Shown: piece by piece, positions 29,041 to 49,376 of the stretch
Position numbering within the stretch: the first letter of the stretch is position 1
Layout of the letters: each line of letters starts with the position of its first letter
NCBI GenBank assembly: GCA_002269645.1
Contig: NIVC01002339.1
Location: forward strand, 1-54,334
Source of the DNA: Macrostomum lignano
Lineage: Eukaryota
Direction: 5' to 3'
Length of the DNA: 54,334 nucleotides
Notes under the pieces: generated by a model
Told to the model about the DNA's origin: nothing
Database searches by the model: none
The model's input: the letters and a program-made list of their open reading frames with translations, nothing else
Made by a program: the position numbers and the translations under genes

Positions 29041-30746
29041 ATGGTTTCAAAACTACAGCCTCTGTACGAGATTGTCCGGGACTCCGTGGCCAACACCACC
29101 GCTCACGCTATCGGCCGAGTGGCTCCTGCGAGTCGACCCGTCGCTCTTCGGGTTTTCTGGCTGCTCACTTTTTTATCCTTTCTTGGCCTGCTACTCAACA
29201 CCTGCATCGTCTACATTGGGAAGCTCAACAGTCCGGGCGTCAAGTCCGAGTTCGAAGCCGAAAAGGTTCCGTTCGAGTTTCCCGACGTGTACTTTTGCAA
29301 CAGTCTGCAAACAGCTGGATCCTTCACGTGTCGCTTGAACAAGTCCGAAGCTGACCAGGTGAAAACTCCATTCTACGCTGCAAATGCCTCATTCCAAGAT
29401 GCGCTCAACTCCCTGAACTCATCGGCCCACATTACCGTCGCACTGGACGAGCTTCGGCCAACAAGCTTGATCCAGTCGCTCCCGTACAAAGTTCTCGCTG
29501 ACATCGTCGGTCAGCGGAAGCTGCAGACTTTCTACATGAACTTCGGCATATTCAGTGCAGGCTCTGAGCCAACACTCGACAAGCCGATTGCGGTCGAGAC
29601 ATTGTACCACCCGAATCACCTGAAGTGCTTTAAGCTGGCCTTGACCGACACTGAGTTGCTCAAAATGCAAAACACAAACAGCAGACTCAAGCTTAATTTA
29701 CACTTGGATCCATACTTTCGCGACTTTGACGAAAAAGGTTTGTTCTCACCACCTGATCAGCGCCTCCCGAACATGACTACAATTGTTTCAGGAAAGTCAG
29801 TAAATGTATATCCGTATGACTGGGACCTGGAGAACCCAATCGGATTCGATAAAGGCAGCGGAATGTACCTCTACCTTACTCCCAGAGGTCAGTATCCTTC
29901 GCGACTCACGTCGACTGTGGTCAGCCTTGGTCCTGGAAGAGCCTATGATATCTCGATCGCGATGCGAGATGTTCTCATGAAGCCGTCGGACTTCCCGGCA
30001 AGTGTGTCTCACAGCACGACGAGCCAGTGTTGTTCCTCAACCCGCGCACCGGTTCTGCCGACGCGTTTAGCTACAGCGAGGCCCACTGCTACTACTCGGA
30101 GATCGCCAGGAGCAGACAGCAGATGTACAACTGCAGTCCTTCACCGGACCCGACACCATGGGAGTTCAGACACTTGGCCTTGTGTCTCAACCTCACTGCA
30201 GCGGCATCGATGGACACCATCCACAGAAATATGAATGCGTTTCTGAGAGCTCGAGAAGACGCTGACAGCGCAAACAGCTCGTGGGACAAAGCGTGCTCAG
30301 AGAAGCGACTGTGCAATCAGCGGCTGTACGATGTGACGTCATCGTACGGATTGTGGCCGAACCAGGGCAGCCTGATTCGCCTAGTGAAAAACCTGTTAGG
30401 ATCTCTGCTAGCGTCTGTGGATCCAACGGATTATAGGTCTTTGGAAACTGGTGTCAAGATTATGAAATTTATGGATGCTTCTGACAGGCTTGGTTTCGAG
30501 GAGGGAGTGTCGCGTTATTTTTCGCGAGCCGCAGTGAGCGTCACGCTTCGAGCGGATGCAACAATGAGCTCTCTGACAACATTCAGTCTTGACTACAATC
30601 TGTCCCAGTTTATCGCTGACATCGGCAGCGCTCTCGGATTGTATCTGGGCTGCTCTCTGCTGACTGTGCTGGAGCTGTTTGAGCTGCTGCACGACGTGAT
30701 TCTGCGTGCGAGTTGCTTGAGGCGCGCGGACAATACGCTCGAATGA
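29041..30746 (+). CDS. DEG/ENaC (degenerin/ASIC family) channel subunit, copy 1; one 1-nt deletion at 29996/29997 relative to copy 2
   Basis: NTTAHAIGRV, TM1 VFWLLTFLSFLGLLL, FPDVYFCN, Cys-rich region, TM2 FIADIGSALGLYLGCSLLTVLE. CCCGGC here versus CCCTGGC in copy 2 splits the ORF. Confidence 0.85.
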
Positions 30747-35198: not shown

Positions 35199-36905
35199 AT
35201 GGTTTCACAGCGCCTGCCTCTGTCAGAGATTGTCCGGGACTCCGTGGCCAACACCACCGCTCACGCTATCGGCCGAGTGGCTCCTGCGAGTCGACACGTC
35301 GCTCTTCGGGTTTTCTGGCTGCTCACTTTTTTATCCTTTCTTGGCCTGCTACTCAACACCTGCATCGTCTACATTGGGAAGCTCAACAGTCCGGGCGTCA
35401 AGTCTGAGTTCGAAGCCGAAAAGGTTCCGTTCGAGTTTCCCGACGTGTACTTTTGCAACAGTCTGCAAACAGCTGGATCCTTCACGTGTCGCTTGAACAA
35501 TTCCGAAGCTGACCAGGTGAAAACTCCATTCTACGCTGCAAATGCCTCATTCCAAGATGCGTTCAACTCCCTGAACTCATCGGCCAACATTACCGTCGCA
35601 CTGGACGAGCTTCGGCCAACAAGCTTGATCCAGTCGCTCCCGTACAAAGTTCTCGCTGACATCGTCGGTCAGCGGAAGCTGCAGACTTTCTACATGAACT
35701 TCGGCATATTCAGTGCAGGCTCTGAGCCAACACTCGACAAGCCGATTGCGGTCGAGACCTTGTACCACCCGAATCACCTGAAGTGCTTTAAGCTGGCCTT
35801 GACCGACGCTGAGTTGCTCAAAATGCAAAACACAAACAGCAGACTCAAGCTTAATTTACACTTGGATCCATACTTTCGCGACTTTGACGAAAAAAGTTTG
35901 TTCTCACCACCTGATCAGCGCCTCCCGAACATGACTATAATTGTTTCAGGAAAGTCAGTAAATGTATATCCGTATGACTGGGACCTGGAGAACCCAATCG
36001 GATTCGATAAAGGCAGCGGAATGTACCTCTACCTTACTCCCAGAGGTCAGTATCCTTCGCGACTCACGTCGACTGTGGTCAGCCTTGGTCCTGGAAGAGC
36101 CTATGATATCTCGATCGCGATGCGAGATGTTCTCATGAAGCCGTCGGACTTCCCTGGCAAGTGTGTCTCACAGCACGACGAGCCAGTGTTGTTCCTCAAC
36201 CCGCGCACCGGTTCTGCCGACGCGTTTAGCTACAGCGAGGCCCACTGCTACTACTCGGAGATCGCCAGGAGCAGACAGCAGATGTACAACTGCAGTCCTT
36301 CACCGGACCCGACACCATGGGAGTTCAGACACTTGGCCTTGTGTCTCAACCTCACTGCAGCGGCATCGATGGACACCATCCACAGAAATATGAATGCGTT
36401 TCTGAGAGCTCGAGAAGACGCTGACAGCGCAAACAGCTCGTGGGACAAAGCGTGCTCAGAGAAGCGACTGTGCAATCAGCGGCTGTACGATGTGACGTCA
36501 TCGTACGGATTGTGGCCGAACCAGGGCAGCCTGATTCGCCTAGTGGAAAACCTGTTAGGATCTCTGATAGCGACTGTGGATCCAACGGATTATAGGTCTT
36601 TGGAAACTGGTGTCAAGATTATGAAATTTATGGATGCTTCTGACAGGCTTGGTTTCGAGGAGGGAGTGTCGCGTTATTTTTCGCGAGCCGCAGTGAGCGT
36701 CACGCTTCGAGCGGATGCAACAATGAGCTCTCTGACAACATTCAGTCTTGACTACAATCTGTCCCAGTTTATCGCTGACATCGGCAGCGCTCTTGGATTG
36801 TATCTGGGCTGCTCTCTGCTGACTGTGCTGGAGCTGTTTGAGCTGCTGCATGACGTAATGCTGGGTGCGAGTTGCTGGAAGCGCGCGGAAGAACAACTAA
36901 ACTGA
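35199..36905 (+). CDS. DEG/ENaC channel subunit, copy 2 (intact, intronless, 568 aa)
   Basis: Two TM segments, FPDVYFCN (FPAVTICN-like), Cys-rich ectodomain, TM2 with GCS filter (G-x-S). Confidence 0.92.
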   Translation: MVSQRLPLSEIVRDSVANTTAHAIGRVAPASRHVALRVFWLLTFLSFLGLLLNTCIVYIGKLNSPGVKSEFEAEKVPFEFPDVYFCNSLQTAGSFTCRLNNSEADQVKTPFYAANASFQDAFNSLNSSANITVALDELRPTSLIQSLPYKVLADIVGQRKLQTFYMNFGIFSAGSEPTLDKPIAVETLYHPNHLKCFKLALTDAELLKMQNTNSRLKLNLHLDPYFRDFDEKSLFSPPDQRLPNMTIIVSGKSVNVYPYDWDLENPIGFDKGSGMYLYLTPRGQYPSRLTSTVVSLGPGRAYDISIAMRDVLMKPSDFPGKCVSQHDEPVLFLNPRTGSADAFSYSEAHCYYSEIARSRQQMYNCSPSPDPTPWEFRHLALCLNLTAAASMDTIHRNMNAFLRAREDADSANSSWDKACSEKRLCNQRLYDVTSSYGLWPNQGSLIRLVENLLGSLIATVDPTDYRSLETGVKIMKFMDASDRLGFEEGVSRYFSRAAVSVTLRADATMSSLTTFSLDYNLSQFIADIGSALGLYLGCSLLTVLELFELLHDVMLGASCWKRAEEQLN

Positions 36906-43233: not shown

Positions 43234-43504
43234 AGTAGTATATAAAAAGACGCTTCTAGACCCAGAGCACTTTTTTAATGACCGTTTTAAGGGTCTAGAG
43301 GGGGGACACGGGGGGTAAATAAAAAAACACATCTAAACACCATTAATACATCTAATCACCCATAATCACCCCTAACAATAAAAATCACTTCCAAACACTT
43401 CCAAACACTCCCCAACACCCCCCTCGCGTCCCCCCTCTTAAGACCTTACAAACGGCCATTAAAATAAGGTCTGATCTAGAAGCGTCTTTTTCTATACTAC
43501 TACT
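43234..43504. repeat. ~85-bp imperfect inverted repeat with AGTAGT...ACTACT ends around a C/A-rich spacer
   Basis: 43234-43316 AGTAGTATATAAAAAGACGCTTCTAGA...GAGGGGGGACACGGGGG versus the reverse complement of 43418-43504. Confidence 0.9.
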
Positions 43505-43558
43505 CTATAACCCCTTGCCCGCGCCGCAGGCGCGAAGGGTCTTTTTCTGTTACTAAAA

Positions 43559-44124: not shown

Positions 44125-45730
44125 TTAGTTCGCAGACATTATCTGGTTCTCATAAAAAGAACCCAATATTTCTTCACCGTCCTTATCAGCAATTATATAG
44201 GTTGTAGGATTGGTATTTAAAACTTTACTGATAGTAAATTTCTCACTTATCTTCCAATATCCTTTTCTTCCTTTTTCAAACTTATCTTTCCATTTATAGA
44301 TATAAACAGAATCACCAACCTTAAAAGATTTCTTTTTATTTTTTTCAAATTTTCCAAAAGTAACTTTAACGTTTTCAGGATTGTTATAAGCTTGTTGAGG
44401 AGTCATCTTTATCGCCGAATGATATGAATTGTTATAATCTTTCACTACGTCTGGTAATATTTTTACCCACTTTTGGTTACCATTAAGACTAAACTGAAAC
44501 CATAATTTCTTACCTAAAGTTCTATTAAATCTTTCTATTAATGCGTTTTTACTCTCTCCATAAATAGAATAAATTTTATTAATATACTCCCCATTCGCGT
44601 CCTTTTTCCTTTCTTGTCCTTTTTCAAAATGATATAATTTATACATATGAGGATTGTAAAATTCTTTTCCTTCGTCAACACACAAACGTTCGCTTTTTTC
44701 TCCAAGACTTCTAAAAGCAGCAGCAACATCCTCTCCTTTTTTGGATTTCAAAGGAACAGCCCACGCGTATCGAGTAAAACCATCTAATATGGTTAAGATA
44801 TATTTATATCCTCTTTCGTTCGGCATCGACATTAAATCAGCATACCAAATTTCATTCTTTTTGAAGTTCATGATTTTTCTATAAAATTTAGGTTTTCGAT
44901 ATTCTTTATGAAGAATCTTTGCCTCATCAGAACTTAACCCACCGCCACTTAACAACAAACACTCAACACAATTATTTCCATGTTGATTATAATTAATTCC
45001 TAAACCAAATTTAACTTTAGATTGTAGAATTTTTTTAACCATCCACCTAGTTAATCTTTGCCCTACCGATAATCCCTGCAAGTTATCTAATCCTTGAATC
45101 ATTTTTTGATCGGCTTCATGTTTTAATCTTAATGCTTCCTCGGGCGGGTTCTTGTCAGCATCTCTATATGCTAAGTCGTGATAGTATGCTAACCAATCAA
45201 TCCCATTTATTGGAATTGAATCAGATTTTGGGGTGTCATCAGGATTTAATCTCAAATCTAAGCGAGTCCCGGCAGTTTACCCTCAATCTTTCGAAAGAGG
45301 CTGGAGCACACCTTAAGCGGTTAAATTACCGCCCATCTCCGTCTGCTCTCTGAACCTTCTCCTTATATTTAAAATACTTAGGAGCTTGGCTGCGCATTGC
45401 CACCGTGTCTTCAAGCTTGTTACCATCGAACCATAGGTTCGCGTGCAAAGCACGATTGGGAAGAGGAGTTACCTCTGTTCCTTCAAAAGATTTCTCAATT
45501 GAAGTGGTACTTGAAGCTGTATGATGGGTTTCACGCAATTTGGAGATGTCGCCACAAATAGTGACTAGCAAGGACATTGCCTTCCTCACTCAGGCCACGG
45601 GTTAACCTGTGAAGTTCATTGATGGTAGGTGTAGTTCCCCTGTATATTTACCAGTAGTAAAGATTGGTGGTAAGCTTGTTAATCCTTTTTGAACATCTAA
45701 CAATCCTCCTTCAAACACTATTTGGTTCAT
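44125..45730 (-). CDS. Polinton PLA2(X)-rve integrase fusion, 424 aa after removing the group I intron; exon 1 45730-45604, exon 2 45272-44125
   Basis: Spliced: ELHLPSMNFTG-S-GTRLDLRLN...IDWLAYYHDLAY...ADQKM (parvovirus-type PLA2 Ca loop and HD motif), then WYADLM...ILDGFTRYAW...CVDEGKEF...IERFNRTL (D,D,E) and FKVGDSV...GSFYENQI. Confidence 0.9.
45273..45603 (-). ncRNA. Group I self-splicing intron, subgroup IC1-like, 331 nt, no internal ORF recognised
   Basis: P1 CAGGUU/GGCCUG with U.G at the splice site; P10 CCCG/CGGG; P3 CAUCUCC/GGAGAUG; P element AAUUGCGUGAAA; Q element AAUGCGCAGCCAAG; P5abc with A-rich bulge and GAAA loop; receptor CCUAAG...UAAGG; P7 GAGCA/UGCUC with bulged A; P8; terminal G. 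Removal restores the frame. Confidence 0.93.
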
Positions 45731-46280
45731 TTTTAATAGCCTTAAAAATACATGAAAGCACCAATTGTTTTGCAAACTCTTCAATGGTTGGTTGTTTAAC
45801 TTTTTTATAGTTATTATCTACGCTAGTTAAGTATCTTTTATTTGTCCAATGTTCAGACTTTTTCATCTGATCTTCATCTTTGTAACTAAACGAAGAAGCG
45901 GGAATGAAATGATCAATATCTAAATTTCCAGTATAATCTTTTGAAACATAATATTTTCTTGTGAAATTTAACCAATCAAAAAAGAATTCTTTTGTGCAAT
46001 CAAGATATGAGATATAGTCCTTGTCATTAAAATTTTTCAACGCCCAATTTATTTTATTTCTAATTAAAACAATATGTTTGTAATTATCATCATTGTGATA
46101 CTTGTTTTTTCTATATTCATTAAACTTATCTTTATTGTTTTTCATCCAAATAGTAGATGAGGTATTATGACAAGATCGACAATCATTTCTAAATTTTTTT
46201 GAATCATTTCTCCAAAAATAAAATTCTTTCGTCATTGGTTTTTCTTGTTTACACTTAATACAAATCTTTTTAGGTTCCAT
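45711..46280 (-). CDS. Free-standing HNH-type endonuclease with N-terminal zinc finger (189 aa)
   Basis: CIKC...CRSC Zn finger; DIDHFIP...EHWTN...DNNYKK (HNH/N pattern); TAAAATG start; 3' end overlaps the PLA2 start. Confidence 0.75.
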   Translation of the reverse strand: MEPKKICIKCKQEKPMTKEFYFWRNDSKKFRNDCRSCHNTSSTIWMKNNKDKFNEYRKNKYHNDDNYKHIVLIRNKINWALKNFNDKDYISYLDCTKEFFFDWLNFTRKYYVSKDYTGNLDIDHFIPASSFSYKDEDQMKKSEHWTNKRYLTSVDNNYKKVKQPTIEEFAKQLVLSCIFKAIKNEPNSV

Positions 46281-46308
46281 TTTATAAAAAAATAAATTTA
46301 ACAATTAA

Positions 46309-47025: not shown

Positions 47026-48497
47026 ATGGCTGAAACAAAAACTATGTGGAGTGATAAATTTCATTTCAAAAAGCACCGACAGTATATTAATGAGGTCAGA
47101 GCAAGAGATTTAAATTATACCCTACCAACAAGTGATAATTCAAATAACTTTACTACTGGAACGGTAACTTTTGACATCGGCGCAACCAACACTATATTGG
47201 ATATGAAAAATGCATTTTTCCGTGTTAGATGGTTGTATACTAGAAATGATGGAACTGCTCTTGCAGCCGGAGATATCGCAGATCGATCCGGAATAATAAT
47301 AGAAAATGATTGGTTTTATAAATGTTTTTCCCAAGCTCAACTAACTGTTAATGGTGCTGAGGTTGAGACATCATCAAACCCCGCAGAGATTAATGGAGTT
47401 TTGAAACATTTAAATTATACTTATTTATCAAAACAAGTTGGTGATAATGTTGGGTGGATGCCGGATAAAGGTAACGGGCAAGCAGTAGTTTTCCTAATGT
47501 ACAAAACGCAGCCGGTGCAGATACTGCAGCGCTAATTGTTTACCTTAATACAAACATAGTTCCAGTTGTAACCACTATGACTAATACAAAAGATATTAAT
47601 ACTGGTTTTATAGATCGTCAGAATAAATTCCCAGTCGCGGTTTTAACCACAGCAACAGCATATGAGCAGGACTTTTCAATCTTTCCACTATTTGGGTTTT
47701 TCTCACCAAATCGGGTATGGAAAGGATTAAAATTTGGGATACAGTTGCAAATATCTGGTGGATATCAGCCTAGGATACTTTATGGAACCTCAATTTCAAC
47801 CGATATAGCAGTTCGTATAGATTCAATTCAATTAGTCGTACCAACTATTGAGGTAACAGCCCCACTTTTAAAACACATCGATAATCAGTTAACGCATGAT
47901 CAGGAAATATTTTATTTGAATCGTCGACATTTTATGCGAACCATTAATAATAACCAGGATTCATTCCAGTGGCAAATACTGACATCAAAACGTCGGGTGA
48001 GATATATTTTTGTTTGGTTTAAGATAACAAATAGAAGGAGTAAAAGAGCAAATGGGGATTTATATTGGCTTCAATCCGGTGCCATAGCAGAACAAGCAGC
48101 CACCGCAACAGACAATGCGGCTGCAGCTATTAACGAGTTTAATGTTCAGAATATCCGCCTGCAGGTTGATGATCAATATTATCCGGTTAAAGACCCCCTA
48201 AATTTAAATATAGCAAATAATAATGTTAATGATTTTATAAAATATTATCAAGATTATGCTAAAAATGAAGCGTATGCCGTCCCTCAGTACACACCCACAG
48301 AGTTTCTAAACATTCATCCAGTGGTTGTTTATGATCTAACGGCACAGAAAGAAAACGTAGCCAATATTGGACTTAATTATATGTTAGAGATTAATAAAAC
48401 CGGTAATCAGGCACTTGACGCCCACGTATTGTTTCTAGAGGAATATATGTCAATTGCTAAAGCTGATGGCACGATTGTTCGGGACGCACCATTGTAA
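47026..48497 (+). CDS. Major capsid protein (double jelly-roll), split by one frameshift at ~47490
   Basis: FSQAQLTVNGAEVE, VRIDSIQLVVP, RYIFVWF, NIRLQVDDQYYP, VVYDLT. A shift in the T-run GTTTTCCT joins ORFs 47026-47535 and 47577-48497. Confidence 0.88.
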
Positions 48498-48581: not shown

Positions 48582-49376
48582 ATGGTAAAGGCAAAACACA
48601 ATAAAATATTTCCAAATGATCCTTTTCTTTGTTTAGTAATCGGAGGATCAGGTAAAGGAAAAACACACTTTGTTTACGATTTATTAACAACAGATGGAAT
48701 GTTAGACTATAATAATTTAATAATTTATACTAATAAACCTAGAATAAAATATTATGAATTTCTTAAACATGGATTAAAAAACAAATTAAAAAAAGATGTC
48801 TTGTTTAGAATGTTAAGAGCATATGAGCAATATGAGGATGATGACGAACCGCGATTTAATCTAGCAGACATTGAGGATTTATGTAAAACAATGGCACAAC
48901 AGCCAGAAAACATCACCGATCGCCCCGAAGGGTCGCGGACTTCGTCCGATCGCGCCCCAACTGTTAGAGTATCAACCCGATTAGCCTATGATCAAATTCC
49001 AAAACATGATAAAACACTAATTATTTTTGATGATTGTATTAATGACGGTGATCAAGAATTGCAAAAGGAAATTTTTGTTAGTGGTAGAGGAGATGGAATT
49101 GGAGCTTTTTATCTTACTCAATCCTTTAGAGAATTAGAATCGATTATAAAAAAGAATGCTAGCTGTTGTGTAATGTTTGATTTAGATAACTATGATCTAC
49201 AAAATATTCACGCTAGATTTAATCCCGGATTGGATGCAAAACCATTTAAAAGTATGTGTAAAAAAATTTGGGATGATAGCCAATACAAACATATTTATAT
49301 CAATCCGAGGTTAGAAAGGAAACATAGAATTTTAACAAATTTGATAAAAGAAGATAATGAGGAAGAAGAGACATAG
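48582..49376 (+). CDS. A32/FtsK-like DNA packaging ATPase
   Basis: Walker A GGSGKGKT, Walker B LIIFDD, SGR (Arg finger), YLTQ, IKKNA. Confidence 0.93.
   Translation: MVKAKHNKIFPNDPFLCLVIGGSGKGKTHFVYDLLTTDGMLDYNNLIIYTNKPRIKYYEFLKHGLKNKLKKDVLFRMLRAYEQYEDDDEPRFNLADIEDLCKTMAQQPENITDRPEGSRTSSDRAPTVRVSTRLAYDQIPKHDKTLIIFDDCINDGDQELQKEIFVSGRGDGIGAFYLTQSFRELESIIKKNASCCVMFDLDNYDLQNIHARFNPGLDAKPFKSMCKKIWDDSQYKHIYINPRLERKHRILTNLIKEDNEEEET

Follow-up and report, generated by a model that had tools for sequence, protein, structure and literature searches.

A group I intron interrupts a PLA2-integrase gene in an animal Polinton

The window, the whole 54,334-nt stretch analysed here, is contig C2339 of a 764-Mb genome (Macrostomum lignano). 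From an AGTAGT end at position 43234 through the contig end at 54334 it consists of an AT-rich Polinton/adintovirus-like element. Pfam recognised an rve integrase and an A32 ATPase (48582-49376), and with the AGT-repeat end these placed the element among the Polintons/Mavericks (adintovirus-like). A putative major capsid gene, which is split (47026-48497), and a putative minor capsid gene were assigned from position and size without a profile match, and a putative protease gene was also found. In sister copies, family-B polymerase motifs were visible by eye in an ORF in which Pfam recognised only an Endonuclease_7 insert. With the PF02945 insert of this polymerase-like ORF (L193:7048-9990), the nuclease domains of the element number three; the accessible part of 10.1101/2023.08.22.554363 reports a Polinton PolB that contains an HNH insert. 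An inverted repeat of ~27 bp, nearly perfect and starting with AGTAGT, flanks the initial 270 bp of the element (window 43234-43505). The window copy has frame breaks at ~45270, at the start of exon 2, and at 47535-47577 in the putative major capsid gene, which reflect either decay or assembly error. The host part of the window contains two DEG/ENaC genes (PF00858) with long uninterrupted ORFs (29041-30746 and 35199-36905), which mark the host as an animal.

The intron, 332 nt on the minus strand (45273..45604), lies between a Gly and a Pro codon. Exon 1 (45605..45730, minus strand) comprises 42 codons and ends at the Gly of the PLA2 loop, whose Gly-Pro has a calcium-loop role. Exon 2 (44125..45272, minus strand) encodes the rest of the PLA2-like domain and the integrase, and its frame is broken at the start in this copy. 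As judged from intronless copies, the gene that the intron splits encodes a fusion of a PLA2-like domain (PF08398) with an rve integrase (PF00665); the sequence-only reading had named PLA2 as the host gene, which held for the domain but not for a stand-alone protein. Natural intronless copies also fixed the Gly|Pro insertion point and excluded a 5' splice site one base further on.

The intron matched the RF00028 covariance model with 62.1 bits (E 6e-15; gathering score 50), and related introns scored 80-85 bits; a gathering scan of the whole window did not pick it up. P1 with a U.G pair at the 5' splice site, P2, P2.1, P3-P9 and P9.0 were present, including the P3/P7 core with its G-binding pair as read by eye, and a long P5 extension suggests an IC1-like ribozyme. 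The predicted fold was more stable than 99 of 100 shuffled sequences (z -3.3). Moreover, P3 and P7 stay paired although their sequence differs among the window, a locus of a second Polinton family of this genome (L146; ~60% integrase identity, family 2), a metagenome contig (L203) and a divergent intron type within the window's own family (type B).

The end of the intron varies. A terminal omega-G was present in the window copy and in all 18 parsed family-2 introns. In 76 of 101 in-frame copies of the window's family (family 1), type-A introns ended in A instead of G; the G-binding pair of their P7 is the usual one. This count excludes 6 odd and 3 unparsed copies. Among the near-identical copies, the largest group has the A-ending form. 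Neither the geometry of P9.0 nor the intronless copies allowed an upstream G as 3' splice site of these introns. An intron that naturally ends in A occurs in Coxiella. Type B, a second divergent core found in 24 copies (L081:2261-2590 and 23 others; 32.9 bits against RF00028), uses the same 5' site as type A and has the P2 and P5 periphery in common with it, and Gly-Pro-Gly is not obviously re-formed at its 3' junction, identically in all 23 parsed copies. The A-ending type-A ends and the odd type-B junctions could mean poor splicing. In 4 of 23 sequencing runs, guessed to be RNA, contigs did not contain the exon-exon joint, which neither shows nor excludes splicing.

An 83-codon open frame runs through the ribozyme core (45326..45577, minus strand) and is probably vestigial. 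It had no Pfam match, consistent with the earlier description of the intron as lacking a recognisable ORF, but it is the same frame as that of the C-terminal tails of intron-encoded nucleases elsewhere (see below). The frame through the core was open for at least 60 codons in 71 of 76 parsed type-A introns.

A free-standing HNH nuclease lies upstream of the intron

Immediately upstream on the same strand is a free-standing ORF of 189 aa (45711..46280, minus strand) encoding a Zn-finger and an HNH (beta-beta-alpha-metal) nuclease, in what proved to be an exchangeable slot. The sequence-only reading had recognised this ORF, its 20-nt overlap with exon 1 (45711-45730) and the arrangement of a free-standing nuclease beside a group I intron that lacks an ORF, all of which were borne out; its distance of 108 nt to the 5' splice site counts both ends, and 106 nt lie between the stop codon and the splice site. 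An AT-rich 11-nt motif just 5' of the start codon (46294..46304, minus strand) may be a promoter. The element of the window contains the 9-nt core of this motif a single time, and the same 11-nt motif precedes the free-standing Eco47II-like ORF and the family-2 intron-encoded ORF described below.

The N-terminus of the protein has two CxxC pairs, and D123, H124, N147, N156 and K159, the first four of which form the DH...N...N catalytic set of HNH / beta-beta-alpha-metal nucleases, are kept and are invariant or nearly so in a 79-sequence family alignment. A Pfam scan of the ORF gave no match. The best PHROG match was phrog_1035, endonuclease VII (E 2.4e-6), which was also matched by 13 of 13 close homologues. 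The AlphaFold model was confident (pLDDT 95), but its structural matches were weak: the zinc repeat of Hpy99I (Z 5.2, rmsd 2.6, 41 residues) and the HNH domains of Cas9, Cap5 and BrxU (Z ~4), with nothing at E < 0.001 in a Foldseek search. PDB sequence searches gave nothing at E < 0.03. A word-index protein search scored none of 27 candidates, and a phage search returned two weak matches. Membership in the F-CphI family was considered and rejected: according to the accessible part of PMC6083498, the motif of that family (Endo VII) is DHDH flanked by CX2-4C and CX2C, whereas the present protein has only DH and carries both CxxC pairs in a separate N-terminal domain.

The HNH protein is under purifying selection (dN/dS 0.48). 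The catalytic half, at 0.31, is more constrained than the variable N-terminal DNA-binding half, at 0.59; the PLA2-integrase gave 0.07 for comparison. The ORF was intact in 67 of 95 HNH copies as parsed. At least 5 types of N-terminus were found, which are mosaic and shuffled against exon-1 and intron types. One homologue, P0008 (E 1e-19), reads straight into the core of the same intron family, and its tail resembles the one in L203, where the intron occupies the same insertion site. HNH relatives can therefore apparently be passengers of this intron, and the HNH protein may also target the intron region. Viral-contig scans with P0008 and with both alignments revealed no relatives.

Two unrelated nucleases alternate in one slot

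We fetched all 150 PLA2 loci that were scored out of 493 candidates, and 137 of the 150 belong to family 1; these copies are mutually related, and the counts are not independent observations. HNH and intron occurred together in 92 of the 137 loci and HNH without the intron in 3. In a further 37 loci the HNH slot was filled by a different, Eco47II-like nuclease, always with the intron (0 without). The remaining 5 loci had the intron together with a stub, another gene or a truncation in the slot. An acidic ORF of ~155 aa with no Pfam match is a third occupant (L090:1559-2026 and L109), with an HNH stub behind it, and the same ORF also lies upstream in L097 and L114.

Co-occurrence of HNH and intron across relatives, the check put forward earlier, was not supported: no association was detected among the 137 loci (Fisher p=0.55), in a test that is underpowered because only 3 copies are intronless. 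The Eco47II-like gene was likewise not associated with the intron within family 1 (p=0.56). Among the three intronless HNH copies, L097 and L100 have an intact HNH ORF beside an intact intronless junction, with an atypical exon-1 sequence; in the third the frame is broken.

These data bear on what the HNH protein does. Most likely, it is a second selfish nuclease that competes for the slot. One alternative is that it is a free-standing homing gene for a neighbouring site unrelated to the intron, or that it works for the virus, for instance in packaging or in the resolution of intermediates, with its position next to the intron being incidental. We consider this possible, if on balance doubtful. 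In its favour, the slot holds either HNH or one of two other genes, the mosaic N-terminal types of HNH are shuffled against exon-1 and intron types, and HNH coexists with intact junctions. Against it, HNH is optional, being absent from the 37 copies with the other nuclease, so that an essential role is doubtful, and P0008 suggests a tie to this intron family.

We regard as unlikely the alternative that the intronless PLA2 junction is cut by HNH itself, by way of a long target, that the intron blocks this cleavage and that both spread together, as do F-CphI and the psbA intron of cyanophage S-PM2, although this would be compatible with the explanation that we favour below. The intact catalytic residues, the majority of intact ORFs, the stronger constraint on the catalytic than on the DNA-binding half, the run of P0008 into the same intron core and the presence of the intron in 92 of 95 HNH copies would fit such a partnership. 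However, a full HNH gene is missing from 42 of 134 intron-bearing copies, L097 and L100 keep an intact HNH gene next to an intact junction, albeit with the unusual exon 1, and no association was detected. The proposal of a collaborative pair suits the layout well, but the evidence for one points mainly to the Eco47II-like nuclease that alternates in the slot rather than to HNH.

The alternative slot gene encodes an Eco47II-like nuclease that is intron-encoded elsewhere

The alternative slot gene encodes a restriction-fold protein of 167 aa. Its intron-encoded form (see below) matched PF09553 above the cut-off (E 7e-6) and the free form below it (E 4e-4), and its neighbours in the Atlas were the PF09553 and EcoO109I clusters. 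The best fold match was EcoO109I (Z 9.8, rmsd 3.6), whose alignment covered 166 of 167 residues, and AvaII was likewise among the highest-ranked matches. Fold and profile thus both assign the protein to the PD-(D/E)xK nucleases, on the basis of sister copies only. Identity to solved enzymes is only 10-16%, and its specificity is therefore predicted from its relatives. As far as the accessible parts of the sources go, the site of an Eco47II homologue is given, without certainty, as GGNCC (PMC10305163), and those of EcoO109I and AvaII as RGGNCCY and GGWCC (PMC12944874). The gene has a dN/dS of 0.25. A plasmid search with the protein gave no match. For C5-methylases (PF00145), none of the 12 matches in the genome fell on a listed element contig, and no methylase was seen among the 19 element ORFs of at least 120 aa that were scanned; within these searches, the element does not carry the cognate methyltransferase of a type II restriction-modification system.

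In family 2, the Eco47II-like ORF lies within the P2.1 loop of an intron at the same insertion site (L146 and 19 of 20 fetched loci). Counted by contig, 28 of 28 family-2 intron-pattern matches were on contigs with the Eco47II-like ORF, compared with 0 of 19 intronless junctions. Outside this genome, a metagenome scan yielded two loci: L203, with the nuclease inside an intron at the same site and in the same layout as in family 2, and L204, a weak partial match (E 2e-5). Furthermore, 6 of 9 database homologues of the nuclease read into the intron core. The free-standing clade sits among the intron-encoded clades in an unrooted tree. This position, the shared 11-nt motif and the read-through frame that remains open in the window's intron hint that the gene left the intron, a direction that is tentative because the tree is unrooted and that would be the reverse of the path described in the accessible part of PMC3984707.

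Two further features of these elements were observed. A family-2 copy (L199:5593-8091) encodes an 832-aa primase-helicase (PriCT_2, D5_N) adjoining the polymerase-like ORF, and in the C110 copy (L191:2621-9998) the block from the protease to the accessory genes is duplicated internally in tandem.

GGNCC and Gly-Pro are purged from the elements

GGNCC is the obligatory spelling of Gly-Pro codons, and the intron separates such a pair. The window's element contained no GGNCC against 14.2 expected, compared with 101 against 98.9 in the host part of the window; in host DNA the site occurs about every 400 bp. It was equally absent from a family-1 element with the Eco47II-like gene (0 observed, 18.0 expected) and from a family-2 element with the intron-encoded nuclease (0 of 16.5). 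Two intronless elements each had one (1 of 14.3 and 1 of 14.8), and this single site was the junction itself. Two diverged intronless family-1 elements had extra sites (2 of 15.3 and 5 of 18.5). In all seven family-1 and family-2 elements tested, GGNCC was the lowest of 256 gapped words. Across the 137 loci (311 kb), GGNCC occurred at the 3 intronless junctions and at 4 other loci where, as far as checked, there are insertions or the flanking gene is missing. L160, L165 and L190 have one non-junction site each.

The shortage extends to the proteins. Gly-Pro occurred 0 times in element proteins, against 7.4, 4.2 and 6.4 expected, compared with 6, 2 and 9 occurrences of Pro-Gly. GGNCC was also rarer than under a synonymous-shuffle null (P 0.007, 0.043 and 0.010).

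A third Polinton family of the same genome (contig C234; L178 and L201) was not purged, with 27 GGNCC against 16.5 expected and 17 against 7.5 in the protein-anchored span, and a search of it for an Eco47II-like nuclease gave no match. It was the only control family among 20 stretches fetched, of which 11 had no Polinton protein match, 3 were short PLA2 fragments, L179 was interrupted (7 of 7.6) and L188-L190 were family-2-like. The lowest gapped word in the third family was GANTC (observed/expected 0.51), possibly owing to a different nuclease pressure.

It is improbable that the purge answers an outside enzyme, from the host, a helper giant virus or an earlier host, with the intron as a shield and the Eco47II-like gene as a bystander or a long-target enzyme: PF09553 clusters do occur in Nucleocytoviricota and intronless family-2 elements without the nuclease are purged as well, but the third family in the same genome is neither purged nor matched by the nuclease, and the families nearest to the nuclease have sites of the class to which the purged word belongs.

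Proposed explanation: a shielded restriction site as a homing target

The explanation that we consider probable is that the Eco47II-like protein is a methylase-free GGNCC cutter, and that the intron shields the last site that could not be avoided and homes into it. The window's Polintons would carry this small restriction-fold nuclease without a cognate methylase, or would descend from or recombine with carriers. The elements would protect themselves by erasing GGNCC everywhere, and with it every Gly-Pro dipeptide. The Gly-Pro of the PLA2 loop cannot be recoded, so the intron would split it in DNA and restore it in RNA. An intronless copy would be cut once, at the insertion site, and then repaired from an intron-bearing copy. 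As the purge leaves the junction site unique, a 5-bp cutter could in this way act as a homing endonuclease. In family 2, with the nuclease in the P2.1 loop, this would amount to ordinary homing, and in the window's family, with the nuclease free-standing just upstream, to collaborative homing.

Under this explanation, HNH would be a competing free-standing endonuclease gene that holds the same slot in most copies; its target would probably be longer, variable and near the locus, and the intron would not need it. Since the Eco47II-like gene is missing from the window's own copy, the purge of that copy must have been inherited or be maintained through co-infection. The host presumably tolerates such an enzyme despite its GGNCC-rich DNA, and our guess is that expression is confined to the replicative phase.

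A bolder form of the explanation, to which we give slightly less than even credence, is that these Polintons run a methylase-free restriction system, in which a GGNCC cutter is directed against rivals or the host and immunity comes from site erasure plus a ribozyme that hides the one site forced by the code. The intron would then be a shield and the 5-bp enzyme a homing endonuclease; free-standing and intron-encoded stages would be present in one genome, two unrelated nucleases would compete, and the A-ending introns would splice.

If true, the intron would be a useful shield and a 5-bp restriction enzyme would have been turned into a homing endonuclease. This would give a concrete selective reason for the persistence of a group I intron in an animal nuclear genome, and the target of a nuclease would have been predicted from genome composition alone. 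A single genome here holds one nuclease both free-standing and intron-encoded at the same site, so that the direction of the proposed path to mobile introns becomes open to examination. The system may also be evidence that integrated Polintons wage nuclease warfare, a role called unclear in the accessible part of a 2026 preprint (10.64898/2026.10.13.758929).

Relation to known systems

Searches of the open-access literature returned nothing on group I introns within PLA2 genes of animal Polintons, nor on avoidance of a site in connection with such an intron. The accessible text of PMC12220804 describes RF00028 introns of ~300-380 nt in Polinton-like viruses of protists, the only hosts it lists (Rhodomonas, Paulinella and Desmodesmus), and assigns no nuclease to them; the Rhodomonas intron lies in a short gene before the capsid gene. 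The present introns differ from these in their animal host, in the PLA2-integrase gene and in the linked nucleases. PLA2X of adintoviruses/Polintons, with its parvovirus-type PLA2 domain, is described without introns in the accessible part of PMC8502044, whereas here PLA2 is fused to the integrase and a group I intron is inserted.

Collaborative homing is described for F-CphI with the psbA intron of cyanophage S-PM2 (accessible parts of PMC6083498 and PMC3984707). The accessible parts of PMC11296320 and 10.64898/2026.10.13.758929 describe it for phages and propose it for Polinton-like viruses by analogy only. Unlike the S-PM2 system, the present one resides in an animal Polinton rather than a phage, its slot alternates between two unrelated nucleases, and its HNH protein does not have the F-CphI motif layout. 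The better-supported partner here has a restriction fold, and the 5-bp site predicted for it is unique after an element-wide purge.

A parallel for the intron-encoded forms is I-Ssp6803I, a PD-(D/E)xK homing endonuclease of a mobile group I intron with a 17-bp target (accessible part of PMC3424549). As in introns of that type, the restriction-fold ORF of family 2 and L203 lies in an intron loop and reads into the core; it belongs, however, to the Eco47II/EcoO109I group, and avoidance of a short site is not expected for homing enzymes with long targets. The same accessible part of PMC3424549 enters the Eco47II/EcoO109I group as bacterial type II restriction enzymes. Compared with Eco47II, EcoO109I and AvaII, the Polinton protein is small (only 167 aa), no methylase partner was found for it in the searches above, and self-protection would rely on site loss plus the ribozyme; Pfam, Atlas and fold similarity connect it to these three enzymes, whose sites have a GGNCC core.
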